64,000 nt of DNA from an uncultured Verrucomicrobiae bacterium (GTDB lineage Bacteria > Verrucomicrobiota > Verrucomicrobiia > Limisphaerales > UBA11358). Made by a program: the position numbers and the translations under genes. Below, piece after piece: positions 9,001 to 60,849 of the stretch (within the stretch, counting starts at the first letter, position 1; every line of letters starts with the position of its first letter). The notes under the pieces are model-generated. The model saw only the letters and a list, made by a program, of their open reading frames with translations, was not told the origin of the DNA and did not search any database. The stretch is taken from assembly GCA_963804345.1 (NCBI GenBank), contig CAWDPX010000017.1, forward strand, positions 30,673-94,672. Reading direction: 5' to 3'.

Positions 9001-12000
9001 CGCCAGCGGCAACGGCGTGAACACCAGCGGCGTGGTGAGCTGGAGTTTGGGCACCTTGGCGAATGGCCAGGTGAGCAACGTGACGGTGACGGTGACGGTG
9101 CCGGCCAGCGGCACGCTGACCAACGTGGCGACAGTAAGCTCGCCGACCGGAGATCCGAACTCGACGAATAATGTGACAGCGCCGGTCATCACGACGGTGA
9201 CGCCGGTGGCGGACGTGGGCATTGGCAAGGTGGGTTCAGCCAGCGTGCTGGCCAGCAGCAATTTGGTATACACGATCTCGGTGACGAACTTTGGGCCATC
9301 GAGCGCGAGCAGCGTAACCGTGACGGACACGTTGCCGGCCACGGTGACGTTTGTGAGCGCCAGCGGCAATGGCGTGAACACCAGCGGCGTGGTGAGCTGG
9401 AGTTTGGGGACGCTGGGCAGCGGCCAGGTGAGCAACGTGACGGTGACGGTGACAACCCCGGCGAGCGGCACGCTGACCAACACGGCCAGTGTTAGTTCGC
9501 CGACGGGTGATCCGAACAGCACGAACAACGTGACCCCGCCGGTCATCACGACCGTGACGCCGGTGGCCGATGTGGGTCTGGGCAAGACCGGTTCAGCCTC
9601 CGTGCTGGCCACCAGCGATCTGGTATACACGATCTCGGTGACGAACTTTGGGCCATCGAGTGCCAGCAGCGTGGTGGTGACGGACACGCTGCCTGCGGGA
9701 GTGAGCTTTGTGAGCGCCAGCGGTGGCGGAGCCAATAACAGCGGCGTGGTGAGCTGGAGTTTGGGCACCTTGGCGAATGGCCAGGTGAGCAACGTGACGG
9801 TGACGGTGACAACCCCGGCGAGCGGCACGCTGACCAACACGGCCAGTGTTAGTTCGCCGACGGGTGATCCGAACAGCACGAACAACGTGACGGTACCGGT
9901 CATCACAACGGTAACCCCGGTGGCGGACGTGGGCATTGGCAAGGTGGGTTCAGCCAGCGTGTTGGCCAGCAGCAATTTGGTATACACGATCTCGGTGACG
10001 AACTTTGGGCCATCCAGCGCGAGCGGCGTGGTGGTGACGGACACGTTGCCGGCCACGGTGACGTTTGTGAGCGCCAGCGGTGGCGGAGCCAATAACAGCG
10101 GCGTGGTGAGCTGGAGTTTGGGCACCTTGGCGAATGGCCAGGTGAGCAACGTGACGGTGACGGTGACAACCCCGGCGAGCGGCACGCTGACCAACACGGC
10201 CAGTGTTAGTTCGCCGACGGGTGATCCGAACAGCACGAACAACGTGACGGTACCGGTCATCACAACGGTAACCCCGGTGGCGGACGTGGGCATTGGCAAG
10301 GTGGGTTCAGCCAGCGTGTTGGCCAGCAGCAATTTGGTATACACGATCTCGGTGACGAACTTTGGGCCATCGAGCGCGAGCGGCGTGGTGGTGACGGACA
10401 CGTTGCCGGCCACGGTGACGTTTGTGAGCGCCAGCGGTGGCGGAGCCAATAACAGCGGCGTGGTGAGCTGGAGTTTGGGCACCTTGGCGAATGGCCAGGT
10501 GAGCAACGTGACGGTGACGGTGATGGTGCCGGCCAGCGGCACGCTGACCAACGTGGCGACAGTAAGCTCGCCGACGGGTGATCCGAACAGCACGAACAAC
10601 GTGACGGTACCGGTCATTACGACGGTGACGCCGGTGGCCGATGTCAGCGTGAGCAAGCATGGTCCAGTGGGCATAACCTTCGGGACGAATTTTAGTTACA
10701 GCATATCCGTGACGAACTTCGGTCCGTCAACTGCGAGCAGCGTAACCGTGACAGACAGTTTGCCGGTGGGGCTGGTGTTTGTGAGTTCGGTGCCTGTCAC
10801 AACGACGAACGCCAGCAATCAGGTCGTTTGGAGTCTCGGCAATCTGGCGGTGGGCGCGACCACGAATCTGACGTTGAATGTGATGTCCATTTTGCGCGGA
10901 ACGGTCACGAACTTGGCGACCGGCGCCAGTCCGGTATTTGACCCCGTGACCACCAATAATGTCAGCCAGCCGGTCATCACGGCCATCACTAATATCCCGC
11001 CGGCGGCGAATCCAGACAGTTATGCGATGGCGGAGAACATGACGAACACATTCAGTCCGCTGCTCAACGATTTGGTGCAGACGCCTGGCGGCAGCCTGAC
11101 CATCATCAGTGTCAATCCAACCAACGGCACCGCTTTCATTGTGGGCGGGACCAATGTCCTGTTCACGCCGCACATCAACTTCATCGGCACGGCCACCATC
11201 GGTTACACCATCAGTGATAACGTGGGCGGGACCAACGCGTCGCTGATCACGGTGACGGTGACGAACCGGCCGCCTATTGCCAATGGTCAGAGTGTGACAA
11301 CGACTGCGAACACGCCGTTGGCGATTTTGCTCACCGGCAACGACCCCAATGGCCTGCCGCTGACGTTTGTGATAGTGAGCGGACCGGTCAATGGCTCGTT
11401 GAGTCTTTTGAACACCAACACCGGGGCGGTAACATACACGCCAAACACGAATTACAGCGGGTCGGACAGTTTCACCTTCCGCGTGAACGACGGCCAGGCG
11501 AACAGCGCCACAGCCACGGTTTCGTTGACGATTTTACCGACGGCCGATGTCACCGTTTTCAAAACCGGTCCGGCTAGCGGAGTGGTCGGTTCCAACATGA
11601 CTTACACCATTACCGTGGCCAACAACGGTCCGGCAACGGCAGCAAACGTGGCGTTGTTTGACCAACTGCCAGCCGGATTCACCCTGGTAAGCGCGACGCC
11701 GGCAACGGTGGCGGTTTCCAACAATCTGGTGAGCTGGCCCGGATTCAACCTGATCAAAAACGCCACCAGCAACTTCACGGTGACGGTGGTTTCTGCTGAT
11801 GGAGGCAGTTACACCAACATCGCCTTCAGCACGGCAAACACGCTGGATCCAAATCCGACCAACAACAACGGCACAGCGACAAATTCACAGGCGATCACGG
11901 CGGTGACGGCGCTGGCGGATGTGGCAGTATTCAAGACCGGCAGCACGAACATCCAGCCGGGGGGCACGCTGACTTATACCATTACCGCGACCAACGCCGG

Positions 12001-43190: not shown

Positions 43191-43265
43191 TCCAGAGTAG
43201 CTCAATGGTAGAGCGCGCGGCTGTTAACCGTGATGTTGTAGGTTCGAGCCCTACCTCTGGAGCCA
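43191..43265 (+). tRNA. tRNA-Asn(GTT)
   Basis: 75 nt with acceptor stem TCCAGAG/CTCTGGA, anticodon loop CTGTTAA, GGTTCGAGCC and encoded CCA. Confidence 0.96.
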
Positions 43266-44896: not shown

Positions 44897-45274
44897 TCAT
44901 ACGTTTTCCTTGGCAAAAGTGATGGCGACGGAGGCAACATGGGTTTTCAACATGGCTGCGAAACGCCGGTTCGCCCGCTGGACAAATTTCAGCTCATGTT
45001 TCTGGATGGCCCGGTCTATGGATTTGAGTCCGCTGCCCAGCACTGTGACCTCGGCCACGGCAAAATGGATCAACAACTGTTGTGGTGAAGTGTGGGGTTT
45101 TTTTTCCAGCGCAGGATTGGCGCACAGCTTGGAATACAGAAATTGTGCATAAGGCAGTTGAAAGCTTTCCTCATCGTCCGCAATCGCGTTCAACGTTGCC
45201 ACGGTGGCGTCGATGCCGTAACAGGGATTGTCACGCGAGCTAGACGGCGATTCGGTGAGTGGATTGGTGTTCAT
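44897..45274 (-). CDS. Hypothetical protein coupled to the relaxase
   Basis: 125-aa ORF overlapping the relaxase 3' end. Confidence 0.65.
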   Translation of the reverse strand: MNTNPLTESPSSSRDNPCYGIDATVATLNAIADDEESFQLPYAQFLYSKLCANPALEKKPHTSPQQLLIHFAVAEVTVLGSGLKSIDRAIQKHELKFVQRANRRFAAMLKTHVASVAITFAKENV

Positions 45275-47963
45275 AGTGCGGTTTATGGATTTGTTTGGGG
45301 CCTATGCGGGATGAAATGGATTGCGTGATGCGGTGGCGGAAATGTTTCAGGAAGCGATGGCCGCGCTGCAAAACACGCTGGATGAATTTTCGGCGGTGAA
45401 CGCGCGCGACAACTTCCACAGCCGCCAGTCGCGCACTGGACCGGGTGACGTGCGAGCGCAACAACTCGGCGTCATCGGTAAAAACGCGGCAGGTGTCGCG
45501 CCCGCGCGAGATGCTGACGTAAAATTGTTCCTGATGGATGGCGGGCAACGAACGCGATGAAGCCACGACCAATACTTCATCCACGGTCTTGCCTTGGGCG
45601 ACGTGTGAAGTGACGGCGTAACCGTGAGTGAAGGTGCGGTAAGTTTCAGGAATCATCCGACCATCGGTCAGCAAAACGGAATCACCTTGAATTGCTTTGA
45701 CCTCGACCAACTCACCGTTGATAAACTTTTTACGCCAGTTGGCCTGTAATAACAGTTTGTCACCGGCAGCAACTTTCAACCTCCGTTTCTCCCCCACATC
45801 AAAGCAGGCGCGGCCTGCACCCAATGGGAAAACATCTTCCGAACCATCGGCGCGTTGAACCTTGAGCGAATCATTGGCGATGGCGACTACCGCGACGGAT
45901 TCATTTTTGTCAAAACCATGCGCCGCCAGGTGAAACCGAAGCGCCATGCCGGGACGGTATTGCCGCGCATTCCGTTTCTGCGCTTCCGTCCATGACAGCG
46001 AATCGAAAACTTGGAATTCCTTTTCTTCACCGGCCAGCCGACCGGATGTTTTCAACGCGACACGAACTTTCTCCGTCACCCCCTCAATTTCATCCCATGT
46101 CGGCGCGACCAGCAGCACGGATTTGTTTTGCTCCAATGCTTTCAGATATGACTTCGCGGCCTCACCGTGCACACCGTGCAGATTGTCGCCCGAAAGCTCT
46201 GTTACTGCGCCCATGCGTTCCAGTTGTGCGAACGCTTCCACCGTCCGTTTCTGCGCGGCCAATTCGACGGCCTTGCGATATTCGGCGCGGCGTTGCCGGC
46301 GAATGCGGGTCAATTGACCGGATTGAAACTTGGAATGTTTTTCCAAAATCCGGAGCGCATCGCCACGGGCAACCGATGAGTGCTGGCCGGTGTCGCCGCA
46401 GAGCAGAACGCGGCAATCTTTCGCCAAATCAAAGAGCTGTTTCATGTCGTCAATCCCCACCGCCCCGGCCTCATCGAGAACGACCAACTGCCGTTTGGAC
46501 AGCCTGGGCTTTGACTGCAACAAATATTGCAACGTTTCCGCCTCGAAGCCTTCGTTGCGGAGAACATCCGTTGCCGCCGCCGTCGGTGTGCAGAATAGCG
46601 GTTCGACACGAGCCTCATTGCAGGCAGCGACCAGTTCATGCAAGGTCGTGGTTTTACCCGTGCCCGCCAGCCCACGGATACCGGTGATGCGGTCACCGGT
46701 GCGCAGCACATGCAGGATGGCGCGCTGTTGATCTTCACCGAGCCAGCCGGCGGGTTGGAAACTGGCGTGCAATGGAGTGACCGAATCGCATTCCGTGTTG
46801 ACCGTCTGAATCAAATCCAGTTCCGTGGCCAAAATTTCCCTGGTCGAAAATCCGTATTCTGTCCTGACCAAGTTCGGCGATTGCTTTACCGCAGCTTTCA
46901 ACGCCGGCAAATCCACTTCGCCCGGACGCTGCGATAGCGCCACTCCCAGCAATTCATGCTCCGGCACCACGGACTTGCGCTCAAATACATGGCTGACGGC
47001 GTGGGTCAGAACTTGGTTTTCATCCGCCGGTATCAACGCGGAAGGCCGGCCGGTTGCTGACGCGCAAATACTCTGTAACACTTGCCGTTCATCCGGCGAC
47101 AACTGAGCCAGTTGCTTTTCGCGCACTTCTGCCGTCGAGATGCCTTTGATCTTTTTCGCCCGGCTCTGATGCACGGCATGGGCAATTTCATTGTTGGTCA
47201 GTTTCCGCCCCAGCTTTTGTTCCATTTCCTGGACCACCTTGTCCCGTTGTTGCGACCGTTTTGAAAATCGTTGCAACACCTCATCGCTCACGCCTTCGAT
47301 TTCAAAGCCGTGCTTCGCCGGCCTGATTTGATAGCCGATTTCCTGAACCCGTCTCGCCAGTTCATTCCGATAAACCGCCGTGGCGTATCGAATCGCGTCA
47401 TACATCGGACGGGCTTGAAGCGCCTTCCAGCATTGTTCCTTTTCATCAAACGTGGCGTTGAACACTGTGCAATGCGTGTGCAAAAGCGGGTCGAGTTCAC
47501 GGGAACTGTCATGCAGAAACGCGGCGGCGACCAGGTTCCCGGTCATGCGGTCGCGTTGGTTGCCTGCCTTGCGCACCCGCGTTGCCGCGAAGGTTTCCAG
47601 TTCGCGGAACGCCATGCGCTCCGCTTCCTCATGTGCCGCCACCAGTCGTTCATCATTCAATGTCACTGCCAGCACCGAGACCGATTTTGGGGCCGAGCAG
47701 GTGAAATCATAAAAGACCCGCCGCTTGTCCTCCTTCTGTTGCCGTTGCGTCAGGCGTTCGCTGGTTTCAGGATTTAGGTTTTCACACAGCGCGTGAAATT
47801 GTTCGCACGTGACCTGCCCACTCAAAACCAATCGTTCCGCGCCCGTGCCAATCCACTGGCCGGGACGGATTTCGCCAGCGGCGTAGTAATCGTTCTGCGC
47901 CAGATGCTCGTCGAAATAGCTCTCGGCATCGGCTAGATTTTTATGCGCGACGGCTGTGAACAT
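45240..47963 (-). CDS. MobF (TrwC/TraI-like) relaxase-helicase
   Basis: N-terminal SYF..DYY, YDFTCSAPKSVS, the HUH motif HDSSRELDPLLHTH, Walker A GLAGTGKT, LDEAG, HGYAVTSHVAQGKTVD and YVSISRGR. Confidence 0.93.
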   Translation of the reverse strand: MFTAVAHKNLADAESYFDEHLAQNDYYAAGEIRPGQWIGTGAERLVLSGQVTCEQFHALCENLNPETSERLTQRQQKEDKRRVFYDFTCSAPKSVSVLAVTLNDERLVAAHEEAERMAFRELETFAATRVRKAGNQRDRMTGNLVAAAFLHDSSRELDPLLHTHCTVFNATFDEKEQCWKALQARPMYDAIRYATAVYRNELARRVQEIGYQIRPAKHGFEIEGVSDEVLQRFSKRSQQRDKVVQEMEQKLGRKLTNNEIAHAVHQSRAKKIKGISTAEVREKQLAQLSPDERQVLQSICASATGRPSALIPADENQVLTHAVSHVFERKSVVPEHELLGVALSQRPGEVDLPALKAAVKQSPNLVRTEYGFSTREILATELDLIQTVNTECDSVTPLHASFQPAGWLGEDQQRAILHVLRTGDRITGIRGLAGTGKTTTLHELVAACNEARVEPLFCTPTAAATDVLRNEGFEAETLQYLLQSKPRLSKRQLVVLDEAGAVGIDDMKQLFDLAKDCRVLLCGDTGQHSSVARGDALRILEKHSKFQSGQLTRIRRQRRAEYRKAVELAAQKRTVEAFAQLERMGAVTELSGDNLHGVHGEAAKSYLKALEQNKSVLLVAPTWDEIEGVTEKVRVALKTSGRLAGEEKEFQVFDSLSWTEAQKRNARQYRPGMALRFHLAAHGFDKNESVAVVAIANDSLKVQRADGSEDVFPLGAGRACFDVGEKRRLKVAAGDKLLLQANWRKKFINGELVEVKAIQGDSVLLTDGRMIPETYRTFTHGYAVTSHVAQGKTVDEVLVVASSRSLPAIHQEQFYVSISRGRDTCRVFTDDAELLRSHVTRSSARLAAVEVVARVHRRKFIQRVLQRGHRFLKHFRHRITQSISSRIGPKQIHKPHYEHQSTHRIAV

Positions 47964-48486
47964 AAACCGCAGTATTATTTGTTTCCCAAAAAGCTTTGTT
48001 CGCTTTCCGATCACCTTTTAATCCCATTTATTGCTGTCATTCTGACGGAAGCCGTGACAGCGGCGGTGTATCACCAGCACCGCTTGCATTGTTGCTCTAC
48101 AATGGCTCTCCTTTCTCATCTGCAATTGGAGAGTCTACCGGAAAAGGCCGTCGGTTTTGTGTCAATTAGACACAAAATGAAGTGTCCGTTTTGCGGATAA
48201 ACCCCTGGGAAACCCTGACTAATGGCAATTTTTAGGTGATGCATTCTTACCATAAAGGCAATGACCATGACCTTGACCGAGAAACATGAGACGGTTTTCC
48301 CGCTGGACTGGTGCCGCCGGGAAGGGTTGGAGCGCCACGATCCGTTGAATGTATTTCGACCTGGGCAAGGATGGCTTGTTGATCCGCCCGGTGAAAGCAC
48401 CCGGAAAACGGGCCGTGGCTGGAAAGTTTGCGAACTTCGGCCTTGTCGGTTGCTTCAAAGTCCTGATTGCGGTATGTTTTGCTTCA

Positions 48487-50356: not shown

Positions 50357-51445
50357 TCAACGTGGAATCAAATGGATGTGCGGAGCTTTGATCAAGGCAA
50401 CCACGGAAGCGCCCGCCTTCAATGCCAGTTCATCGCAAGCTTGACGGGTCAGCAACGCTTTCAATGGAAAACCGCAATCCAGTTCGATCCGCATCATCGG
50501 TCCTTCCGGTGAGAGCGCAAGCACCGTTGCGGACAGGCGGTTGCGCGCACTGGCTGGTGTGCCGCCGTTCTGAATCAAGATCACGTCCTCAGCGCGGATG
50601 CAGAGGTGTACGACATTCGCGCCGGAAGGCAAATCTTCGGCCAGCGCGGTAAATTCATGCCCGTTCACGTTCACGGTCGCCAGTCCATCTGACACACGGG
50701 TGAGGTGTCCGAGCAAAACGGTTTCGGTTCCGACAATCGCCGCCACCGCCAGATTGGCTGGATGATTTATCACATCCGCGACCGGTCCGGTCTGGAGCAC
50801 GTGTCCCTGGTCGAGCACCACGAGCTGGTCGCCCAAGGCCGCGGCTTCATACCGGTCATGCGTCACCAAAATTGCAGGAATTCCCAACTGCAAAAGCTGC
50901 GAACGCAACTCGCCACGCAATCGCTGGCGTGTAGGTGTGTCGAGCGCGGAAAGCGGCTCGTCGAGCAACAGCAAACGCGGACGGCGTACCACGGCGCGGG
51001 CAAGTCCGACGCGTTGCTGCTGGCCGCCGGAAAGTTCGTGCGGCAGGCGGGTTTCGAGTCCGTCCAGCCTGAGCCAGCGCACAATTTTACTGACGCGTGC
51101 CTTTTTTTCGGTGGCGCTTTGCCCGTGCAATCCGTAACCGATGTTGGCCGCAACAGTGAGATGCGGAAATAATGCGTAATCCTGCGGCACAAATCCTGTA
51201 TTCCGTTTTCGCGCCGGAACAATCTTTTTTGAGTCCGAGTCGAACCACACTTCACCGTCAAATTGGATATTCCCTGCTTCGGGCTGCTCCAATCCGGCGA
51301 GGCAGCGAAGCATGGTCGTTTTGCCCGAACCTGACGGGCCGAACAGCACGGTGACGCCGTTCGTGCTGGCGTGCAAGTTTTCCGCGCGAATCACCGGGCC
51401 GCTGGCGAAGCGTTTCGTGAAGCTGGCCTGGATGCCGGGCGTCAT
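50357..51445 (-). CDS. modC: Molybdate ABC transporter ATPase with TOBE domains
   Basis: GPSGSGKT, LSGGQQQRV, LLDEP and VTHD. The start is re-placed at MTPGIQ, overlapping the modB stop. Confidence 0.9.
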   Translation of the reverse strand: MTPGIQASFTKRFASGPVIRAENLHASTNGVTVLFGPSGSGKTTMLRCLAGLEQPEAGNIQFDGEVWFDSDSKKIVPARKRNTGFVPQDYALFPHLTVAANIGYGLHGQSATEKKARVSKIVRWLRLDGLETRLPHELSGGQQQRVGLARAVVRRPRLLLLDEPLSALDTPTRQRLRGELRSQLLQLGIPAILVTHDRYEAAALGDQLVVLDQGHVLQTGPVADVINHPANLAVAAIVGTETVLLGHLTRVSDGLATVNVNGHEFTALAEDLPSGANVVHLCIRAEDVILIQNGGTPASARNRLSATVLALSPEGPMMRIELDCGFPLKALLTRQACDELALKAGASVVALIKAPHIHLIPR

Positions 51446-52110
51446 ATTTTGCTCCTGCGTTGCAACCGCTCGCTGATCCACAGCGCGGCAAACGCCAGTG
51501 CCAGCGAAATGCCGGCCAGCGTCCAGGCATGGCTGTCTTCGCCCAGTTGCACGAGCTGGTAAATATCGGTGGACAACGTGGTGGTGACGCCGGGAATGTT
51601 CCCGGCCACCATGATGGTCGCGCCGAATTCGCCCAGTGCGCGCGCAAACGCCAGCAATGTTCCCGCCAGCAATCCGCGGCGTGCCAGCGGCAATGTAATG
51701 GTGAAGAACACGCGCCATTCGCCCGCGCCCAGCGTGCGGGCCATCTGCTCCAGCGCCGGATTCACCTCCTCAATCGCGGCACGCGCCGTCCGTACGAGCA
51801 GGGGAAATGACATCACCGCCAGCGCCAGGGCCACGGCGCGCCAGGTGAACACGATGTCGAGATGGAATTCCGAGTAAAGCCAGTGGCCGAGAGGGCCGCG
51901 CCGGCCAAACAGTTTCAGCAGAACCAGTCCGGTGACCACTGGCGGCAGAACGAGAGGCAGGGCGACCACCGTTTCCACCAGCGATTTGCCGCGCCAGCGG
52001 AGCCGCGCCAGACACCACGCCAGCGTGACGCCCGGCACGAGAATCAACGCCGTGCTCAACACGGCCATGCCCGCCGTGAACGCGACGAGCTGCCATTCGG
52101 CGGGTGTCAT
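51442..52110 (-). CDS. modB: Molybdate ABC permease
   Basis: LPLVLPPVVTG and FARALGEFGATIMVAGNIPG. Confidence 0.95.
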   Translation of the reverse strand: MTPAEWQLVAFTAGMAVLSTALILVPGVTLAWCLARLRWRGKSLVETVVALPLVLPPVVTGLVLLKLFGRRGPLGHWLYSEFHLDIVFTWRAVALALAVMSFPLLVRTARAAIEEVNPALEQMARTLGAGEWRVFFTITLPLARRGLLAGTLLAFARALGEFGATIMVAGNIPGVTTTLSTDIYQLVQLGEDSHAWTLAGISLALAFAALWISERLQRRSKI

Positions 52111-52137
52111 GACCTGCGGCGGTGGCTGCCAGCGGGG

Positions 52138-52350
52138 TTATTCATCCACGCCGACCATCACGCTGGAGGCTTTGATGACCGCGTAGGCCGTCCGTCCTTT
52201 TTTCAGTTTCAAGGCGGCGGCGCTTTCGGCGGTAATCGTTGAAACAATTTGAACTTTCGGGGCGATTTCCAGAACGACGAGGCTGCTGATGGGGCCGCGT
52301 TTGATGTTTTTTATTTTGCCTTTAAGAACATTGCGGGCGCTGAGTTTCAT
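52138..52350 (-). CDS. mop: Molbindin (Mop/TOBE) protein
   Basis: MKLSARNVLKG .. STIT..S...L.L..G..AYAVIKAS. Confidence 0.92.
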   Translation of the reverse strand: MKLSARNVLKGKIKNIKRGPISSLVVLEIAPKVQIVSTITAESAAALKLKKGRTAYAVIKASSVMVGVDE

Positions 52351-52373
52351 GATTTTCCTTTTGGTTTGACTGG

Positions 52374-53138
52374 TTATTTACCGGCGGTGGACAAAACAAT
52401 AAACCCGTGGCGGGCGAAGACTGCATCTGCCCCGCTGCCCGTCAGGTATCCCAGAAACTTTTTCGCGGCGTCCGGTTGCGGCGCGTTCGCCACCAGTGCC
52501 GCCGGATAGGAAATCTTCGGTCCATCGGCAGCCGGCACCTCAATAGCCACTTTTACCCTTTTGGAAATCGCGGCATCCGTCTTGTAAACCACACCGGCAT
52601 CCACGTTGCCGGATTCCACGGCGGCGAGAACGGCGCGAACATTTTCGCAGGGAACCACCTTGGGTTCGACTCCCGCCCACAGCCCGGATTTTTCGAGATA
52701 AGCTTTCGCGTAAGTTCCGGCGGGAACAATCCTGACATCGCCGAGCGCGACGCGCTTGACGGCGGCATTGGTCAAATCGGCGGGCGACTGGATCGCCGTG
52801 CTGTCCGGCGGGGTGACGATGACGAGCGAATTGCCCAGCAGACTTTTGCGCGTTTCCTTCACGAGCAATCCCTTCTTTTCCAACGCATCGGCCTTGGCCT
52901 CGTCGGCGGAAATAAATATGTCGGCGGGTGCGCCTTCCTCAATCTGCCGCGCCAGCGTGCCGGACGCGGCGAAGTTGAAGACAATTTTGTCGCCGGACTG
53001 TTTTTCATAGGCGGCGGCGATTTCCTGGAGCGACTCCGTCAGGCTCGCGGCGGCGAAAACCATCACCGTCGCGGCGCGCAATGGCACCGCGAAGAATAGC
53101 AAAGTTCCCACGATCAAGGCTGAAATTATTTTCTTCAT
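52374..53138 (-). CDS. modA: Molybdate ABC substrate-binding protein
   Basis: VFAAASL, FAASGTLARQIEEGAPADIFISA, VPAGTYA and GVVYKTDA. Confidence 0.95.
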   Translation of the reverse strand: MKKIISALIVGTLLFFAVPLRAATVMVFAAASLTESLQEIAAAYEKQSGDKIVFNFAASGTLARQIEEGAPADIFISADEAKADALEKKGLLVKETRKSLLGNSLVIVTPPDSTAIQSPADLTNAAVKRVALGDVRIVPAGTYAKAYLEKSGLWAGVEPKVVPCENVRAVLAAVESGNVDAGVVYKTDAAISKRVKVAIEVPAADGPKISYPAALVANAPQPDAAKKFLGYLTGSGADAVFARHGFIVLSTAGK

Positions 53139-53204
53139 CACAGCGAAAATCTTTCCACAAAAGCGTGGCTGGCGCAAATGCAATACCAGCCGTCCGCCTC
53201 GATC

Positions 53205-53687
53205 TTACCAGGGTGTTTTGCGTTCAAAGCGTGCGTCAGCGACGACCGGTTTATCCGGCACCGTATCCAGCCAGCCACAGCGTTGCACCGGATAATTGTC
53301 GTATTGCGGAACGTAAGGCTTGATGTCGAGCAGAGGTGTGCCGTCCAGAATGTCCACCTCGGCCAGACGAAGGATGCAGCCTTCAATGTTTAACAACCGC
53401 ACGCATGAAATTCCGAGCGCATTTGGGCGGGCTGGAGCGCGCGTGGCAAACAGGCCGTGTTCCACCGTGTCGCGGTAAGGCACCACGCTCATCTTGGCAA
53501 CCGCCGCCCGGTGAAACCAATAAATCAACCAAATGCGGTCGAAGTCGGCCAAGTCTTCCTATCCAGCGACAAATTCCGGAAGCAAGGTGACGTATCCGGG
53601 CGAATCACCGGCCCGACACGGTTGGATCGGTGTGCCGGTCGCCTGCTTGAACGCAGAGTGAACGACTCCGATTGGGATCAGGTTCAT
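53205..53687 (-). pseudogene. tsaA: TrmO/TsaA family SAM-binding protein interrupted by an in-frame TAG (53559-53561)
   Basis: MNLIPIGVVHS..GTPIQP..EFVAG*EDLADFDRIWLIYWFH..GLFATRAPARPN..LDGTPLLDIKPY, all in one frame. Confidence 0.85.
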
Positions 53688-53743
53688 GGATGGAGAAGGG
53701 TGAACTGTTTTTAACATAATTCTATTTCCAATCATTTTCGCAT

Positions 53744-55168
53744 TCATCCGACGCATCGGCAGAACGAGGCTGGCCGTAAATCCCCGGAGTCAGCCAAGCT
53801 CGTGGACTCAATCGGCGGCAACCGTCCGCGACGGTGCTGCACGCCTACATACAATGCCAACAAGCAGCCCGCCAGACCGCAGGCGAACAGATACAAATAG
53901 CCGCTCATGTAGTCGAATTTCAGAGGCGCACAGAAATAGCCGGAGTAGAGCTTGACCCACAACCCGACTCCGTTCATCAGCAGCACCGTGGCCAGACCGC
54001 GTGCGATCAAGAAACCGGAGTTGAACGTGCCCAGCAATTTCGGCGGCGTGAGGTCGAAGAGCAACGGTTCCAGTGAAAGCAGCGTTGCGGTTCGCGCCAG
54101 CGCCCCGACGGCGGTAAAACCGATCACCGCCGGGACCGGCGGAATCTGTTGTGGCGCGGCAAATTTCACATAGAGCCAGTAGGCCAGCGGCTGAAGCGCG
54201 GCCAGCCACAGCCCCGCCTGAAAAAGCCGGAAGCGATCCGTCCGATCCAGCAGCCACGCCATCAGCGGCAGCACCAGTCCGATTTCCAGCAGAATGATGA
54301 TGCCGTGCATATTGCCCATGGCGCGCTTAGTGTAGCCAAATTGCTCGGTGATGAGCAGCGGCTGAAGCTGGCCGAGTCCCACTTGGGCCGCAACCGACGC
54401 CAGCACCAGCAGGCAAAGCAGCCGCGCGCGAACCGTGCCGAAAACGCTCTGAAAAAACGCGCGGCCCGGCCAGAACGCCGATAGCGGCTTGGGTCGAACT
54501 GTTTCGTCTTCGTCCGGCGCCGGCGGCGTTTCGCGCACAAAGAGAATGACAAACAACACGCTCGCCAGCACCAGCGCGGCTGCGAGAAAATATATCAACT
54601 GTTCTCCCGTGAGGTTCAGCGCCTTCAGGCCGCCGAAACCGGGGGTCAGCTTGACGGCGTTGACCTCGTCGAACCGGCCGATGAGCAGAAAGTTGAAAAA
54701 CAGCCGGGCGATCACGCTCATCAAACGGTTGACCGCCACCGCCCGGCCCCGCTGCGGCGGCGGCACGATTTCATAATAAAGCGGACTCCACGGCCCGGTG
54801 AAACCGAAGTCCACCGCGAATTGGTAAAGCAGAATCGCTGGAATGAGCGTCCACAGATTTGGAGCGAGCGGCAAAACCACCAGTGACGGAATCAGCAAGA
54901 CCAGCCCGGCCACGATGAACGGCTTGCGCCGGCCCCAGCGGGTGCGCAGCCGGTCGCTCTTCCAGGCGACGAGCGGGGCGACCAGGAAATTGAAGGCGAT
55001 GTTGATACTGCCCAGCAGCGAGATGAGCGCCGGGTCGGCGATAAATTTGCGCATCGTGAAAATCAGCGCCGTGCCGCTGCATTTTTCGACAAAGGCAAAC
55101 ACGCCGACCGGCAGGCTCATCCAGAGAACCCAGGCCCAGGGAATTCGCGCGGTGCGGGTCAGAATCAT
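53744..55168 (-). CDS. MFS transporter (GPH-like)
   Basis: SDRLRTRWGRRKPF motif and about 12 hydrophobic segments. Confidence 0.88.
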   Translation of the reverse strand: MILTRTARIPWAWVLWMSLPVGVFAFVEKCSGTALIFTMRKFIADPALISLLGSINIAFNFLVAPLVAWKSDRLRTRWGRRKPFIVAGLVLLIPSLVVLPLAPNLWTLIPAILLYQFAVDFGFTGPWSPLYYEIVPPPQRGRAVAVNRLMSVIARLFFNFLLIGRFDEVNAVKLTPGFGGLKALNLTGEQLIYFLAAALVLASVLFVILFVRETPPAPDEDETVRPKPLSAFWPGRAFFQSVFGTVRARLLCLLVLASVAAQVGLGQLQPLLITEQFGYTKRAMGNMHGIIILLEIGLVLPLMAWLLDRTDRFRLFQAGLWLAALQPLAYWLYVKFAAPQQIPPVPAVIGFTAVGALARTATLLSLEPLLFDLTPPKLLGTFNSGFLIARGLATVLLMNGVGLWVKLYSGYFCAPLKFDYMSGYLYLFACGLAGCLLALYVGVQHRRGRLPPIESTSLADSGDLRPASFCRCVG

Positions 55169-55177
55169 GTCCAGCCT

Positions 55178-56056
55178 TTAAGCGCGCCGGTTCCGGCGCC
55201 GCACGCACAGCAACAGCAACCCACCGGCAATCATGGTCGCCGTCGCCGGTTCCGGCACCACGGCGATGTCAAAGGACAGGGTTGGCGAATACAGCGCCGG
55301 GTTGCTGCCGCTGCTGTAACTGTGCGAGGTGAAATTGAAGGCTACGTGATTGTCGGCAGGGGTGAGCAGCAACGAAATCGAATCGCCGGACATCAAGGCG
55401 GACAAAAAGTCGGCGTTGGCTGTGCTGACTGAATACGTTGCGGGCACCAGCGTTCCTTGCGCCACGTACGAACAGGTGTTGAGCAGCGTGGCGGGTGTGG
55501 CGCTCAACGTGGATTGGAGGCTGTTGTAAGTGATGCCGGTGTAGGAAGCAGGCGACTGGCTGCCCGTGCCTTGAATCCAGTCGCCATCGTTGAACAGCCA
55601 ACTGACGTTGAAGCTCCCGCTGGTGCCGGGACTGTTGAACATGGAATTGCCGACGGTGCTGGAGGTGTTCAAGGTCAAGGACAGGGATGAAATGCTCCAG
55701 TCGCCAACGCCGTATTCTGAGTTCAGCGTGGCCACCGTGGAGGAGAAATCAAACCGCAGGACCGAGTCGAATTCGCCTTTGGAGGGATTGGCGGGGTAGT
55801 TGCCAGGATGCGCCGAGGGCGAGGCGATGGAACGCGAGTTCATGCCGCCAAAATTTTGGCTGGCGGCGTTTGGATAACTGCTGTTGCCCGGGCCGGGATT
55901 CAGCACAAAGGAGTCGTCCGTGTCATAAACGGAAACGGAGGGTTGCGCCTGAACGGCAACATTCCAGAGCGCGGTGCAAACGGCCGCCAGGGCCAGTGCG
56001 GGTTTATAATGGTTGATGAGTTTCATTTTGAGGGTTTGTTTCATGTTGTTTTTCAT
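55178..56056 (-). CDS. PEP-CTERM exosortase-target protein
   Basis: Own signal peptide (VQA-QP) and ends VPEP + TM helix + RRRNRR. Its ATG overlaps the upstream TGA (ATGA). Confidence 0.88.
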   Translation of the reverse strand: MKNNMKQTLKMKLINHYKPALALAAVCTALWNVAVQAQPSVSVYDTDDSFVLNPGPGNSSYPNAASQNFGGMNSRSIASPSAHPGNYPANPSKGEFDSVLRFDFSSTVATLNSEYGVGDWSISSLSLTLNTSSTVGNSMFNSPGTSGSFNVSWLFNDGDWIQGTGSQSPASYTGITYNSLQSTLSATPATLLNTCSYVAQGTLVPATYSVSTANADFLSALMSGDSISLLLTPADNHVAFNFTSHSYSSGSNPALYSPTLSFDIAVVPEPATATMIAGGLLLLCVRRRNRRA

Positions 56057-57181
56057 TTGAGGATGCGTATTCGCAAAAAGCGGCTGGTGGCGGCGGGCAC
56101 TGGTACGAGGTCGCGCACGGTCACATTTTTGAGACCCTGCCGTGACCGAAACGGTTTCACTGACCAGTCCCGGTCCGCTCATAGGCATGCCGTTGGTGCC
56201 AGCGGCCACGAGTGTCCACTGGCTTTGGGTCAAAGCGGCGGCGGCCTCCACGAGGTAAGTCAGGTTGGTGACCCCGGCGAGGCGTTGAAAACTCAAGTTT
56301 AAATACTGGGTGCCGTTCAAAAGTCTGATTTGTGCCACCGGCGGCGGCAGCGGCGAGGCGGTGACAAAAATCGTCGCCGAATACTCATTCGTGCCCCGGT
56401 CGTCGCCGTATTGGTGCGAAGTGAAATTAAAGGCGACCTGATCATCCGCCGCGTTAAACAACAGCGTGGTGGGCTGCGTGTTGATGAGCGCCGCCAGGAA
56501 TGACAGGTTCGTTGTCGTCAGGGAATTGGTCACGGGAATGAGCGTTCCCTGCTTCACAAAATTCAGCGTGTTCAGCACCACCGCCGGATTGGTGCTCAAA
56601 ATGGATTGCAGGCCGTTGTAGGTCAGGTTGGTGAAATTATCCGGACTTGCGACCGGATCGTGCGAGCTGCTTCCCTGATTGATGTAACCGTTGCCTTGAA
56701 CCCAGCCGCCATCGTTGGGCATCCAGCAGACATTGAATTGGCCGGCAGTGCCTGGTGCATTGAACATTCCGGGACCGGCCACGTTGTCGGAGGTCGTTAG
56801 TTTCAGCGCCAGCCCGGTGATGCGCCAGCAACCCACGCCGTATTGCGCGTCGAGTTGCGCGACGGCGTTGGACGGATAAAACCGGGCCACCACGTCAAAC
56901 TCGCCCATGCTTGGATTGGCGGGATTGCCTCCCGGATGCGCTGTGGCCGCCGCAACGTGCCGCGAGCGCATATAACCGAAATTGCGTTCGGCTCCATCCC
57001 AGTAGCTGGCCATGTTGCCCGGCCCCGGTGACATTACAAAAGTGTCATCGGTCGCATAAATTGGCGCGGTGGTTTGTGCGACGACCGGCAGAGTCAGGAG
57101 CGTCAATAGCCCGCCCAAGACTGCCGCCAACCACTGCGGTTTTGACTTCGTTCGCACGTGCTGAGTTGATTTCGTAGTCAT
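56053..57181 (-). CDS. Exported paralog of the PEP-CTERM protein with a different C-terminal domain; a 1-bp frameshift near 56126-56137 fuses it to the next gene
   Basis: Removing one base gives ..NVTVRDLVPVPAATSRFLRIRILK* ending at 56053. The N-terminal domain is clearly homologous to the downstream protein. Confidence 0.8.
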
Positions 57182-57199
57182 GGATTGGATGGATTTGCT

Positions 57200-58204
57200 T
57201 TAGTCAGAGATGTCATTCCCAGGCTGGAGACTGTAAAATTCACTTCCCCACTGAAACGGTTGAAGCGTGTTAAAAATGGTGGTGTTGACCGCATGGCCGT
57301 CGGCAAAAATAAAATTGCTGGAGCGCGAACTAACGAGTCCTTTGTGCTGATGATTGCGTCCGACCCAGTCCAGCCAAGGCAGGCTGGCTCCGGGAAGCGA
57401 AGGCTCGGCAACTATGTCGGCGGGCGTAAACCGGCGCATCGCCGCCCAGCAGGGCCGTTTGCAACCAAACAGGCGCGTGTCGCACCGATTGTTGACTGCG
57501 GCCGGCCCCAGCCCGCTGAAACCATGGACCGGCAGATAACTACGACACACCAGATTTCCGGACGCACCTACTAACAGTCGCCAGTCCGTAGTCCATTCAG
57601 TAGCCATGACTGTGCCGGCAGGGTTGTCCACCGAGGAATCGCGCACGTAGCGGCATGGCCGGCAGGCTCCCTGAAAGCCGATGACAAAATGGTTGGCTGG
57701 AAAGAGCGCCTGATTGACGGTAAAGGCGCAGCGTTTGGCCTGCTCATCCACGACGCCGGGTGTCTCGTCGTGCTGGCCATTCTCCAGATTGTCCGCTTCG
57801 GTGTTGGCCGGAGGCAACCCGCCCCGATTGAAGGCGGGACAGTGCAACGATTGCTCGGTGGCCAGTCCCTGACTCATCAGCACTCCCGACCAATGCACAT
57901 ATCCCTGCGTTGGCTGGTTCGGCGTCTCAATTCCATGGCCGATACTCATGCCGCGATAAGAAAACGCGGCGGGATAAAAGCTCTCGTTGTCCGAGGAGTA
58001 GATGGCAAATGCCCTGCCCAGGGAGGACTGGTTGGCCAGACATTGAATTTGCAACGCCCTCGCTTTGGTCGAGCAAAGCGCCGGCAGAAGCAGCGAAGCC
58101 AGCACACCGATGATGGCGATGACAACGAGCAGTTCGAGCAGGGTAAACGCGCGCCGCCGGGTGCAAGCCAGTTTCATGGCATCCTGATTGTCGGATCGCT
58201 TCAT
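57200..58204 (-). CDS. Prepilin-type N-methylation protein with an H-X9-DG motif (DUF1559-like)
   Basis: AFTLLELLVVIAIIGVLASLLLPAL, C..N, and H..SNFIFADGH. Confidence 0.9.
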   Translation of the reverse strand: MKRSDNQDAMKLACTRRRAFTLLELLVVIAIIGVLASLLLPALCSTKARALQIQCLANQSSLGRAFAIYSSDNESFYPAAFSYRGMSIGHGIETPNQPTQGYVHWSGVLMSQGLATEQSLHCPAFNRGGLPPANTEADNLENGQHDETPGVVDEQAKRCAFTVNQALFPANHFVIGFQGACRPCRYVRDSSVDNPAGTVMATEWTTDWRLLVGASGNLVCRSYLPVHGFSGLGPAAVNNRCDTRLFGCKRPCWAAMRRFTPADIVAEPSLPGASLPWLDWVGRNHQHKGLVSSRSSNFIFADGHAVNTTIFNTLQPFQWGSEFYSLQPGNDISD

Positions 58205-58205
58205 G

Positions 58206-59267
58206 TCAGATGTTCATCATTGCTCCAGTTTGGCGGGCGTCATATCCCGGCAATTCGCTGATCAGGCGGCGGTGGTTGCGGCTGCGCAATAATCGGACGA
58301 GAGCCTGGATGCGCGGGTCGTGTTGGAACGCGGTGGAAAAACACAAATCCAAAGCTTCCTTCCGCACCGGCAGAAAATTTAATCCGGCTTCGTCGGCACT
58401 GAAGCGCACGCAAACGCCCGCCTCCGCCCAGCCCGCGCGCACGGCCTCGGCCACCGCCGCGTGACCTTTCACCTCGCGCCCGGCGAAATGCCGTTTGCCG
58501 AGCAGTTCATCCAAGCATTCGCGCGCCGCCGAACCGGATTCGCGCGCCGCCCAGCGCAACGGACGCCGAGCCACGGATTCCGCTGAACGCGAACGATCGT
58601 CCGCCGCCAGTGCGATACCGGATTCCCATTTTGCAACGCGGAGCAGTCGGCAATCGCCGCCGAACTGCTCCCGCACGGTCTCAGCATTGCGTTCCGGCGA
58701 TTCATCTGTGGAATAATGCAGTCCCGCGACATGAACCAGCCGTTGCCGCAACAATTCCAACGCGCTGCGTCCACCACGAGGAAACACAAGCAATCGGAAA
58801 CCGGACGCCCGCGCGTATTCCGCTGCCAGCAAACCCGCCGCCGGATCACAGCACGCCATCACCAGCGTTGTTTCCGCCACCGCCGGACCACTCTCGCGCA
58901 ACACGCCGTTTTGCCAGACGCCGTCATGCGGCGTAGGATTCAAGGTCACCGCCTCGACCGGATACAGCCGCCGCCGTGAATTCACGCTGGCTTCCCAATA
59001 GCGGCACGTTTCGGCGCGCGGCAGCCACGCCCAGTCAGGCCCGGTCAAAACGGGTGTTGCCGGACGGCCAAACAATTCTTCGACCGAACACTCGAACACC
59101 GCCGCCAGCGCCAAGGCCGTCGCAACCGACGGTGATAGACGTTCGCCCTCGATGGCGCTGACCGCCGCGCGCGAGATGCCGGCGCGTTCAGCCAGTTCCG
59201 CTTGCGACCATTCGCGCGCCAACCGCCGTGCCAGCACCGGGTTGGACGATATGATTCTGTCGTTCAT
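58206..59267 (-). CDS. XRE-HTH + PBP-like (molybdate-binding type) regulator
   Basis: WSQAELAERAGISRAAVSAIE, CCDPA, HVAGLH, RESGSAAR, HAAVAEAV..G.AEAGV and LPGYD. Confidence 0.85.
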   Translation of the reverse strand: MNDRIISSNPVLARRLAREWSQAELAERAGISRAAVSAIEGERLSPSVATALALAAVFECSVEELFGRPATPVLTGPDWAWLPRAETCRYWEASVNSRRRLYPVEAVTLNPTPHDGVWQNGVLRESGPAVAETTLVMACCDPAAGLLAAEYARASGFRLLVFPRGGRSALELLRQRLVHVAGLHYSTDESPERNAETVREQFGGDCRLLRVAKWESGIALAADDRSRSAESVARRPLRWAARESGSAARECLDELLGKRHFAGREVKGHAAVAEAVRAGWAEAGVCVRFSADEAGLNFLPVRKEALDLCFSTAFQHDPRIQALVRLLRSRNHRRLISELPGYDARQTGAMMNI

Positions 59268-59323
59268 GGTTATTATCGTGTCACTCCGGGGCAAATAAAA
59301 ATGCCGCCGGACTAAAGTGCTTT

Positions 59324-59340
59324 TGCAACTGCGATGCCAA
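59324..59340 (-). promoter_or_regulatory. Sigma54 (-24/-12) promoter
   Basis: Minus strand TTGGCAT-CGCAG-TTGCA matches TGGCAY-N5-TTGCW, about 55 bp upstream of the regulator ATG. Confidence 0.75.
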
Positions 59341-59507
59341 GCAGTTGAACTTTCTAACGAAGCGGACAAACCCCTTGTGAAACAAAGTGTTTATCGTGAT
59401 TGGAATGTTTCCGGCGAAAAAATCCCGCCGGAAAAATCCTACCTGAATGAAGTTTTTAACCCGAAAGCTACGCCGATGTGACTTTGTTGGCGGCGCGCAA
59501 ATCTGCT

Positions 59508-60302
59508 TCACCTCACCGCAAACGCATGCCACACGGCCAGGCCGGCGAGCAGCAATGCGGGCGCGGCGACAAGGCAGATGCGCCAGAGCCGTTGCTGCGC
59601 GCCGGGGGTGGTGGTGAATCCCAAAACTTCCGCACCGGTGGCGATGCCGTTGGCGAGGTGATACACCGCCGCAATCATGCCGAGCAGGTAAAATTCCGCG
59701 AAGAGCAGGTTGCCCGGATGACCGGCGGGCAATCCGTGCCAGAACTGCCAGATGGCCTGCGACGCCGAGTTGAAGGCGTTGCGCGGATCGAACCGCCCGC
59801 CGAACCAGCGGTGCAGTGTGCCGATGTGGAAAGCGATGAACACCAGTAGAATCAAGGCGCTGACGCGTTGCAACCACTGGCGCAGGTCGCTGCCATGATG
59901 ATGCTTCTCCACGCCGAATTTTAATTTTTCGCGCCCCAGCGTCCGCAGGCCAAGCGCGACATGAATCGTCAAGGGAATGAAAATCAAACCAATTTCCAGT
60001 ACTGGCAACGCCGCGCCCAGGCCGTGAATGCGGTTCACCGCCGATTGAAACCGCGCCGGCCACAGACCGAGCAGGTTGACGGCGAGGTGCAACACCAGAA
60101 ATCCGCCAAGCACAAAGCCGCTCCAAGCGAGGTAATGGCGCGGGCAGGTGCGACCGCTGCAACCGCATTCCTGCACGGCCTCCTCACCGAATTTCAAGTC
60201 AAGGATGGCACGCGCGTCAGGCAGCGCGGCACGGCGACCATGACCGCCGCAGCCACAGGAACTTTTTCGGCAGCCGGATTTGGGAGCAGTTTCAACGCAC
60301 AT
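59508..60302 (-). CDS. SdhC-like cytochrome b558 subunit with a Cys-rich N terminus (orphan)
   Basis: FLVLHLAVN, PLTIHVALG, LQRVSA..FIAFHI and YHLANG give four heme-ligand-like His in five TM segments. Confidence 0.75.
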   Translation of the reverse strand: MCVETAPKSGCRKSSCGCGGHGRRAALPDARAILDLKFGEEAVQECGCSGRTCPRHYLAWSGFVLGGFLVLHLAVNLLGLWPARFQSAVNRIHGLGAALPVLEIGLIFIPLTIHVALGLRTLGREKLKFGVEKHHHGSDLRQWLQRVSALILLVFIAFHIGTLHRWFGGRFDPRNAFNSASQAIWQFWHGLPAGHPGNLLFAEFYLLGMIAAVYHLANGIATGAEVLGFTTTPGAQQRLWRICLVAAPALLLAGLAVWHAFAVR

Positions 60303-60324
60303 GGGAAATCAGCCGGCAGTCATT

Positions 60325-60849
60325 TCATTGACGCGTGGTCGCCTTGCCGTGCTGCGCTTGAACGACCGTCGCGCCGAGTTGCAGCGAGGTCGCGTCCCAC
60401 TTCCAGTCGCCACCACCAGGGCCGCCGGTGAGCGCAAGCATTTCGCCGAGCAATTTGGGCTGGGCCGGCGGTGTAATTTCAAATTTCCCGGCGAATTCCG
60501 CCGCGTTGCCGCCAATTTCCCGGTCTATCACCACGGAAAAATCCAGCGCCAGTTGCGTGGAGGTGTCGCAGCAACTGCCGTGAATCCGCGCGAGTTCGTA
60601 CAGGCAGACGCTTGTGGCGTCGCGGCCTGTGACATCAAACAAAACCGCAAATGCGTCGCTGGCCGGCGCAATTCCGGCGAGCTTCGGCAACGCGGCTGCG
60701 TCGAGTTTCCAGCTCTGCGTTTCGGAATCGCTCAACGTCTTAACGTGCCGCGCGATGAGGCCGTCGCGCCCGCTGAGCTTGAGCGGCTGGATTTTTTCGT
60801 AGCGGACGGTTTTGCCGTCGGCGGTTTTTTTATAGATCAGGAAGGCCAT
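60325..60849 (-). CDS. Hypothetical protein coupled to nifV
   Basis: 174-aa ORF overlapping the nifV 3' end. Confidence 0.7.

Follow-up and report, generated by a model that had tools for sequence, protein, structure and literature searches.

The window analysed here, a 64-kb stretch of contig CAWDPX010000017.1 from an uncultured Verrucomicrobiae bacterium, carries at the end of a nitrogen-fixation (nif) gene cluster ten co-oriented minus-strand genes (50357-59267) headed by a sigma-54 type site. We hold it to be probable, if only moderately so, that these genes form a sigma-54-dependent molybdenum (Mo) acquisition operon, probably nitrogen-regulated, which includes an envelope accessory module specific to bacteria of the Planctomycetes-Verrucomicrobia-Chlamydiae (PVC) group. 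It is secure that an operon for Mo uptake, headed by a sigma-54 promoter that is conserved, lies at the nif cluster, and gene context gives good support to the assignment of the accessory block to a module family tied to Mo and tungsten (W) homeostasis; we infer co-transcription, the location of the proteins, the ligand and its hand-off, and likewise capture of Mo at the cell surface. The block, made up of a pilin-like protein (PIL334), the paired exported proteins ParA and ParB, and a permease of the major facilitator superfamily (MFS), is one of two interchangeable module variants in Verrucomicrobiota, Planctomycetota and Lentisphaerota. The features of the operon are as follows.

59418-59432, minus strand: upstream copy of the motif TCCGGCGGN(A/G)TTTTT, candidate regulator site
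59324-59339, minus strand: sigma-54 type -24/-12 site, TGGCAT-N5-TTGCA, with GG-N10-GC spacing
59297-59311, minus strand: downstream copy of the same motif, directly past the -12 element, candidate regulator site
58206-59267, minus strand: regulator of 353 aa with an XRE-type helix-turn-helix domain (PF01381, 47.5 bits) and a PBP_like domain (PF12727, 137.4 bits)
57200-58204, minus strand: PIL334, prepilin-type protein (PF07963, 31.3 bits)
56053-57181, minus strand: ParA, exported CBM96-like protein, long form, frameshifted; paralogue of ParB, orthologue P0012
55178-56056, minus strand: ParB, exported CBM96-like protein with a PEP-CTERM tail, 47% identical to ParA; modelled with AlphaFold2 (AF2)
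53744-55168, minus strand: MFS permease of 474 aa (PF07690, 64.1 bits) with a weak GPH-like signature (PF13347, 52.9 bits)
53205-53687, minus strand: TrmO/TsaA-like gene with an in-frame TAG (PF01980, 106 bits on the downstream part)
52374-53183, minus strand: modA, molybdate-binding protein (TIGR01256, 201.9 bits, cut-off 62.5)
52138-52350, minus strand: mop, molbindin of 70 aa (TIGR00638, 76.1 bits, cut-off 55)
51442-52110, minus strand: modB, permease (TIGR02141, 230.2 bits, cut-off 182.6)
50357-51445, minus strand: modC, ATPase (TIGR02142, 276.5 bits) with a TOBE domain at residues 299-359 (PF03459)

ModA and ModB score above the cut-offs of the ModABC importer models and ModC slightly below (285.05 bits would be needed), its TOBE domain being present. 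From the regulator to modC the intergenic gaps measure 1, 18, -4, 9, 56, 21, 23, 27 and -4 nt, two of the junctions being ATGA overlaps; taking the ATG as the start of modA widens the gap in front of that gene to 63 nt. This is in agreement with the earlier note on this DNA, which had described a tightly packed, co-oriented run in just this gene order: ten genes are found, with gaps of at most 56 nt (63 nt with the modA ATG). Terminator-like sites number 21 against 15.1 expected, with none that is conspicuous and none seen inside the gaps between the genes, and an Rfam scan of the whole window returned two tRNAs only and no riboswitch for the molybdenum cofactor (Moco). Upstream of the operon the order is nifB, fdx (ferredoxin), nifV, a gene for a 174-aa protein, a gene for a Sdh_cyt-like membrane protein and then the promoter; the run nifB-fdx-nifV is thus where the earlier note had it, but two more genes intervene. 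The absence of a TonB receptor, which that note had also remarked on, holds among the 13 and 29 window open reading frames (ORFs) scanned, a single 4457-aa ORF that fills the first 13 kb of the window (35-13408, plus strand) lying outside the scan.

The promoter site reads TGGCATCGCAGTTGCA, which fits TGGCAC-N5-TTGCW with GG and GC 10 nt apart; it is the sole perfect TGGCAY-N5-TTGCW match in the window, and its -12 GC stands 58 nt from the ATG of the regulator gene. Taken alone the site is weak evidence, since shuffled versions of the window hold 0.32 matches on average and a match turns up in 30 shuffles out of 100. For comparison, a scan of one genome per species yielded 34 loci with relatives of ParA and ParB (PAR loci), among which the window's own species is not represented, as the best relative is only 44% identical. 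One of them, L030, keeps the sigma-54 site at 8329-8344 in an orthologous intergenic region that is 78% identical to that of the window, and encodes a regulator orthologue that is 84% identical. A second, L001 from Lentisphaerota, has the site TGGCATTGCCTTTGCT at 8692-8707, 79 nt before its PIL334 orthologue and within a 295-nt gap after modA. Across the 611,699 nt of window and loci there are five perfect sites, all at most 102 nt upstream of a co-oriented nif or Mo-cluster gene; three of these, one each in the window, L030 and L001, stand before the module or its regulator gene, and the remaining two precede nifH (L001) and nifN (L030). The consensus -24/-12 promoter that had been placed ahead of the operon is accordingly borne out by a perfect site and by its conservation in L030.

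The 15-nt motif TCCGGCGGN(A/G)TTTTT occurs in exactly two copies in the window, 121 nt apart and on either side of the sigma-54 site, and in L030 the pair recurs at corresponding places (8237-8251 and 8358-8372), again 121 nt apart and flanking the promoter. As far as sequence can tell, the arrangement suggests that the pair are candidate operator sites for the XRE/PBP_like regulator, whose sensor domain scores 96 bits against the C-terminal domain of NF011068, a model of MoeA type. An inverted repeat at 59409-59433 was considered as a conserved hairpin and rejected, because its second arm is a direct repeat in L030, and it is now understood as one copy of the 15-nt motif.

The assignment of the accessory block to Mo/W homeostasis draws on the 34 PAR loci. 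Genes were called by a codon log-likelihood model (greedy longest-ORF calling and calling by third-position GC content, GC3, gave shadow ORFs), and the 336 proteins encoded within about 5 kb on each side fell into 142 clusters, whose representatives were assigned with Pfam or NCBIfam. Counting as Mo genes modABC, mop, ModE-N-like regulator genes, Moco biosynthesis genes and MOT1, we find one within about 5 kb of PAR in 21 of the 34 loci and a TupA-like lipoprotein gene alone in a further seven; a prepilin-like gene stands in the same cluster in 25. A random 10-kb stretch is expected to hold a Mo gene in about 1% of cases, a figure that is an estimate and not a computed control. The link is present in Lentisphaerota, Methylacidiphilales, Verrucomicrobiia, Chthoniobacterales and Pirellulales; at least three phyla are represented among the loci. 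The synteny of the block with Mo genes that the earlier note had led one to look for is therefore recovered, in contrast to the specific tie to nif that it had proposed: nif genes occur in only three loci, most loci carry Moco genes and the ModE-N-like regulator, and the association is with Mo/W genes in general. The recurrent neighbours are these.

TupA-related lipoprotein of about 282 aa: 25 of 34 loci
H-X9-(D/A)G prepilin of about 231 aa: 24 of 34 loci
ModE N-domain-only regulator (TIGR00637, E 1.5e-25): 14 of 34 loci
ModA: 9 of 34 loci
MoaD: 9 of 34 loci
MoaC: 9 of 34 loci
TauE/SafE permease: 8 of 34 loci
MoaE-MoeA fusion: 8 of 34 loci
ModB: 7 of 34 loci
ModC: 7 of 34 loci
MoCF domain protein: 6 of 34 loci
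MoaA: 5 of 34 loci
Mop: 3 of 34 loci
PBP_like regulator: 3 of 34 loci

Single cases near PAR comprise MOT1, MobA, MOSC, xanthine-dehydrogenase-type enzymes and a molybdopterin oxidoreductase, the true MOT1 adjoining the PAR gene in L029.

Two module variants can be distinguished. Variant 1 has the order ModE-N-like regulator, 231-aa pilin, TupA-like lipoprotein, short PAR (with PEP-CTERM) and long PAR (ending RFYRL), followed by modABC or by TauE-moaD-moaE/moeA-moaC-mog-moaA, whereas variant 2 consists of PIL334, one or more PAR proteins and MFS, its context being known from two clusters, the window and L001. The PAR tree is consistent with this division: variant 2 sequences form one clade (16 rows; Shimodaira-Hasegawa-like approximate likelihood-ratio test, SH-aLRT, 97), and variant 1 splits into one clade of short and one of long PARs, each with 17 rows. 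The TupA-like partner in variant 1 finds its best solved match in the tungstate-binding protein 3lr1 (E 1.3e-24) and matches NF041772 (E 1e-13). Common to L030 and the window, at 61-87% identity, are nifB, fdx, nifV, the genes for the 174-aa and Sdh_cyt-like proteins, the regulator, the TrmO-like gene and modABC; between regulator and modA L030 has variant 1 in place of the window's variant 2, no parts of variant 1 being found in the window. This in-place swap is the ground on which both variants are read as doing the same job. In L001 nifK, nifD, two PII genes and nifH share one strand, and next come mop-modB-modC-modA, the 295-nt gap and PIL334-PAR-MFS, followed by a convergent nifA; PIL334, PAR and MFS are 58, 45 and 65% identical to their window counterparts. 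The association of the block with nif and mod thus extends to another phylum.

In eight loci (L002, L003, L005, L006, L008, L009, L021 and L025) a TauE/SafE-type permease gene replaces modABC right after the PAR genes, mostly with Moco genes following, and the TauE/SafE-type permease may be an unrecognised molybdate carrier. In two loci outer-membrane porin genes (Porin_5, Alginate_exp) are part of the Mo/PAR cluster, with mop on one side and the regulator or modA on the other.

L012 13427-14797, minus strand: porin gene
L013 13022-14791, plus strand: porin gene

ParA and ParB are paralogous, as had been claimed, with 47% identity (E 1e-78). A listed 667-aa ORF is ParA plus ParB, two genes: the frame of ParA changes near a GGG run at 56135-56137, and its true end lies in the other frame, where it closes with ...LKNVTVRDLVPVPAATSRFLRIRILK (a C-terminal domain ending RFLRIRILK) and a stop at 56053 that overlaps the ParB start as ATGA. 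The C-terminus is intact in the orthologue P0012. The second PAR gene of L030 (10816-11586) ends in sequence that looks out of frame, as ParA does, a likeness suggestive of homopolymer errors in the assemblies. The earlier note had spoken of PEP-CTERM proteins here; such a tail is found on ParB (VPEP...LLLLCVRRRNRRA), where the score of 19.5-19.8 bits against a cut-off of 20.7 is borderline, but not on ParA. By a word-indexed search ParB has 21 relatives, and a profile search of 1.84 billion representatives gave 972 clusters at E <=1e-3 and 330 at E <=1e-30. No relatives of ParB were found in the plasmid collection, and the PAR profile has no match in the PDB by sequence. Two long proteins, P0274 (PAR plus pilin) and P0342 (PAR plus TupA-like), were considered as fusions and rejected as read-through artefacts, since their second parts keep a signal or leader of their own and P0342 has stretches that look out of frame, so that they document adjacency only; other long PAR-containing proteins carry Ig, Calx-beta or dockerin domains and are uninformative on Mo.

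The AF2 model of ParB (predicted local distance difference test, pLDDT, 88.9; predicted template-modelling score, pTM, 0.83) predicts a CBM96-type fold. The permease matches MFS_1, MFS_2 and Sugar_tr only, with weak matches to sucrose/GPH models, and 134 relatives of it were found. These observations keep a different account alive, in which the block is a capture and import unit for an acidic glycan or uronide, made up of external CBM96-like binders and an inner-membrane symporter of GPH-like type; it would merely be co-regulated with nif and mod or have hitch-hiked into the island, having no direct role in Mo supply. In its favour, Foldseek aligns the ParB model with a chondroitin-sulfate-binding module (8wab, E 4e-10) and with the alginate-binding founder of CBM96 (7vbo, E 2.4e-7), the template-modelling (TM) score relative to the target being 0.65-0.75 across CBM96-type structures (0.70-0.75 for 8wab); CBM96 (PF24517) is matched by sequence in 35 of 71 PAR family members (best E 7.8e-9), ParB itself having no such match at E <=0.1; the relatives of the permease bear the database name 'Na+/melibiose symporter-like'; and six of the 34 PAR loci have no Mo link. 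The account leaves unexplained, however, the Mo-gene neighbours in 21 loci and the lipoprotein of oxyanion-binding type in 25, the modules showed no genes for glycoside hydrolases or lyases, and variant 1 has no sugar-type transporter. We regard it as unlikely, and note that the fold and the permease signature also allow uptake of Mo bound to acidic organic ligands.

PIL334 begins with a prepilin cleavage/methylation motif, which exceeds the cut-offs of PF07963 (21.2) and TIGR02532 (29.5 bits, cut-off 16.3). Its C-terminus, NFIFADGH, does not sustain the H-X9-DG label attached to it earlier: the spacing is H-X14-DG, and PF07596 (DUF1559) is not matched at E up to 1. More than 5000 relatives were found, many of them with PF07596, including relatives at 40-46% identity, and hhalign pairs PIL334 with the H-X9-DG pilins of variant 1 at a probability of 99.6%, which together make it a divergent member of the DUF1559/H-X9-DG superfamily. 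In the AF2 model (pLDDT 91.5, pTM 0.86) a helix at residues 22-72 precedes a head of about 260 aa; Foldseek finds 0 matches in the PDB at E <=0.001, the best being weak ones to type IV pilins (6xxd, probability 0.90), and the PIL profile matches only pilin helices in the PDB by sequence. PIL334 is predicted to be a pilin helix joined to a head that resembles no known fold.

Proteins of 762-798 aa, which fall into six diverged clusters, combine an MFS domain, a linker, a prepilin motif (N_methyl) and a DUF1559 domain with a true H-X9-DG. Their MFS part is 46-49% identical to the permease of the window, and because the fusions are 59-89% identical among themselves with variable linkers, they are taken to be real and conserved. 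A pilin helix following the cytoplasmic end of the MFS domain would place the head in the periplasm, and the topology fits. Judged from the protein sequences, these fusions are the strongest sign that pilin-like proteins of the DUF1559 superfamily may work with this carrier family.

The same fusions bear on a second account, according to which a type II secretion system or type IV filament employs the pilin-like protein as a cargo-specific pseudopilin for the export or display of ParA and ParB, so that the block would serve not uptake but a surface or matrix structure, for instance PEP-CTERM-dependent flocs shielding nitrogenase from oxygen. The first 60-70 residues of PIL334 do match pilins and GspG, a PilT-family ATPase gene follows PAR-PAR in two of the 34 loci, ParB weakly matches the flocculation protein model PepA (NF033554, E 9.7e-6, 25.6 bits against a cut-off of 80), and PEP-CTERM tails occur in 36 of 71 family members. 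The pilin-MFS fusion points instead to inner-membrane transport, a permease (ModABC, TauE or MFS) comes after the module in 17 of the 34 loci, and most loci adjoin Moco biosynthesis genes and not nif, for which reason protection of nitrogenase from oxygen cannot be the general role; we consider this account distinctly improbable. The ATPase genes in question, of the PilT/PilU family, lie directly after PAR-PAR in L007 (10960-12291) and L017 (8120-9343).

That the block is a decaying remnant, with the ParA frameshift and the TrmO-like stop both real and only the regulator, modABC and mop still of consequence, would account for two lesions within 3 kb among intact neighbouring genes, but is very improbable given that PIL334, ParB and MFS are intact with orthologues 92-97% identical, that the ParA/ParB ATGA overlap is preserved, and that a frameshift in a GGG run, shared in kind with the second PAR of L030, would fit the homopolymer-error pattern of long-read assemblies.

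The Mo-acquisition reading allows a mechanism to be proposed. Its core is known: a regulator with a PBP_like sensor resembling that of Mo-related proteins, the ModABC importer and the Mop molbindin. The PAR proteins would be exported and reside within the envelope or at its surface, where PEP-CTERM would retain one of them and a C-terminal beta domain the other, and where their CBM96-like folds might bind an anionic ligand. The pilin-like protein would be anchored in the inner membrane by its N-terminal helix or built into a short pseudopilus, and would cooperate with the permease, a partnership implied by the fused proteins. High-affinity import and buffering would then fall to ModABC and Mop. 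Going further, and more tentatively, it is possible that H-X9-DG/DUF1559 pilin-like proteins are pilin-anchored receptor subunits of nutrient uptake that pair with inner-membrane carriers, and that the module is an undescribed envelope pathway which captures Mo or W, perhaps as complexes with acidic organic ligands, and feeds ModABC, TauE or MFS carriers.

Several findings weigh against the Mo-acquisition reading. No result obtained here shows binding or transport of molybdate by PIL334, ParA, ParB or MFS. The solved relatives of the ParB fold bind anionic glycans (chondroitin sulfate, alginate) and not metal oxyanions, and structure prediction, which the earlier note had listed among its checks, led to a glycan-binding fold type. 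The head of PIL334 finds no periplasmic-binding-protein (PBP) fold in the PDB, so that its Pfam name SBP_bac_10 is unsupported by a binding-protein fold here, and the permease of the window lacks a MOT1 or MOT2 signature (PF16983, PF05631) and has GPH (sugar/uronide)-like ones instead. Of the residues that define TupA, namely the TTTS motif and Arg118 according to PMC5517513, the TupA-like partner has neither (VIGG occupies the TTTS position, and the SRGD segment falls in a gap of the alignment), while the equivalent of His59 is kept. No Mo link is seen in six of the 34 loci (L019, L020, L022, L023, L027 and L032, several of them on short contigs), or in 13 if the TupA-like gene is not counted, and many loci come from closely related Verrucomicrobiia metagenome-assembled genomes, so that 21 is too high a figure for independent events. 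As to regulation, the scanned ORFs of the window yielded no Sigma54_activat domain and no gene for an enhancer-binding protein near the promoter, and 59300-59560 contains no NifA-type TGT-N10-ACA; in L001 a NifA gene (TIGR01817, 543 bits) adjoins the block. The coupling of the block to mod and nif, as the earlier note put it, stands in so far as PIL334-PAR-MFS recurs beside modBCA, nifHDK and nifA in L001, but there the block is a transcription unit apart from modBCA with a sigma-54 promoter of its own after modA, and can therefore be transcribed separately from modABC. Finally, both ParA and the TrmO-like gene are broken in the sequence of the window.

In the TrmO-like gene the break is a TAG (53559-53561) that aligns with a Leu codon position of the L030 orthologue. 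A short TrmO/TsaA-like gene accompanies the cluster in three genomes (window 53205-53687, L030 9458-9982 and L025 17100-17438). Likewise in three genomes, the 174-aa protein, which belongs to no known family, and the Sdh_cyt-like b-type cytochrome are encoded between nifV and the Mo cluster.

Window 59508-60849: 174-aa and Sdh_cyt-like pair
L030 6485-7855: 174-aa and Sdh_cyt-like pair
L012 7925-9345: 174-aa and Sdh_cyt-like pair

Beyond modC the window contains a TrwC relaxase/helicase gene (45240-48014) and a tRNA-Asn gene (43191-43265), and in L030 a tyrosine recombinase gene directly follows modC (16117-17469); the nif-mod island thus adjoins mobile-element genes in both. No attachment-site (att)-like repeat of the tRNA-Asn end is present within the window.

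Few orphan paralogue families in Planctomycetota, Verrucomicrobiota and Lentisphaerota are as large as that of the DUF1559/H-X9-DG pilin-like proteins, and the Mo context, the in-place variant swap and the MFS-pilin fusion together provide a testable handle on two groups that have had no role assigned to them, these pilin-like proteins and the stand-alone CBM96-like PEP-CTERM proteins. In peat and soil Verrucomicrobiota nitrogen fixation is often Mo-limited, and to our knowledge little has been established about how molybdate crosses the outer layers in bacteria without TonB-dependent molybdophore receptors. In the accessible parts of the literature searched, subscription journals being outside the search, no link of DUF1559/H-X9-DG or CBM96-like PEP-CTERM proteins to Mo was found.

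Molybdate uptake operons for ModABC and Mop that are linked to nif are familiar from diazotrophs such as Rhodobacter capsulatus and Azotobacter vinelandii. The operon of the window resembles them in having ModA, ModB, ModC with TOBE, and Mop beside nif, with regulation probably tied to nitrogen and Mo, and differs in that its regulator is of the XRE plus PBP_like type and not ModE, that a sigma-54 promoter heads it, and that it includes four additional envelope genes as well as a TrmO-like gene.

Compared with TupA (PDB 3lr1 and 5my5; PMC5517513), the variant 1 lipoprotein, whose gene is absent from the window, belongs to the same PBP fold family and keeps the His59 equivalent, but has VIGG for TTTS, no Arg118 and no adjoining TupBC.

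A parallel to PIL334 is offered by the archaeal bindosome, in which, according to PMC3047682, solute-binding proteins carry type IV pilin-like signal peptides and are assembled by the Bas system. Common to both are a pilin-type N-terminus on a large extracytoplasmic domain and a genetic tie to a transporter, here through the MFS fusion; relative to that system, the host is bacterial, the head does not have a PBP fold, the carrier is a secondary one of the MFS and not an ABC importer, and an assembly ATPase adjoins in only two of the 34 loci, so the likeness would be functional only. Modular type IV pilins such as PilB of Streptococcus sanguinis (PMC8179133) similarly join a pilin module to a large head, whereas the head of PIL334 has no recognised fold or function and PVC bacteria have thousands of paralogues.

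The PAR proteins share their beta-sandwich fold with the CBM96/DNRLRE modules (PDB 7vbo and 8wab), and 35 of 71 match them by sequence. Unlike those modules (PMC9971899), PAR proteins are not attached to enzymes but stand alone, with a signal peptide and either a PEP-CTERM tail or a C-terminal beta domain, and are located in Mo gene clusters.

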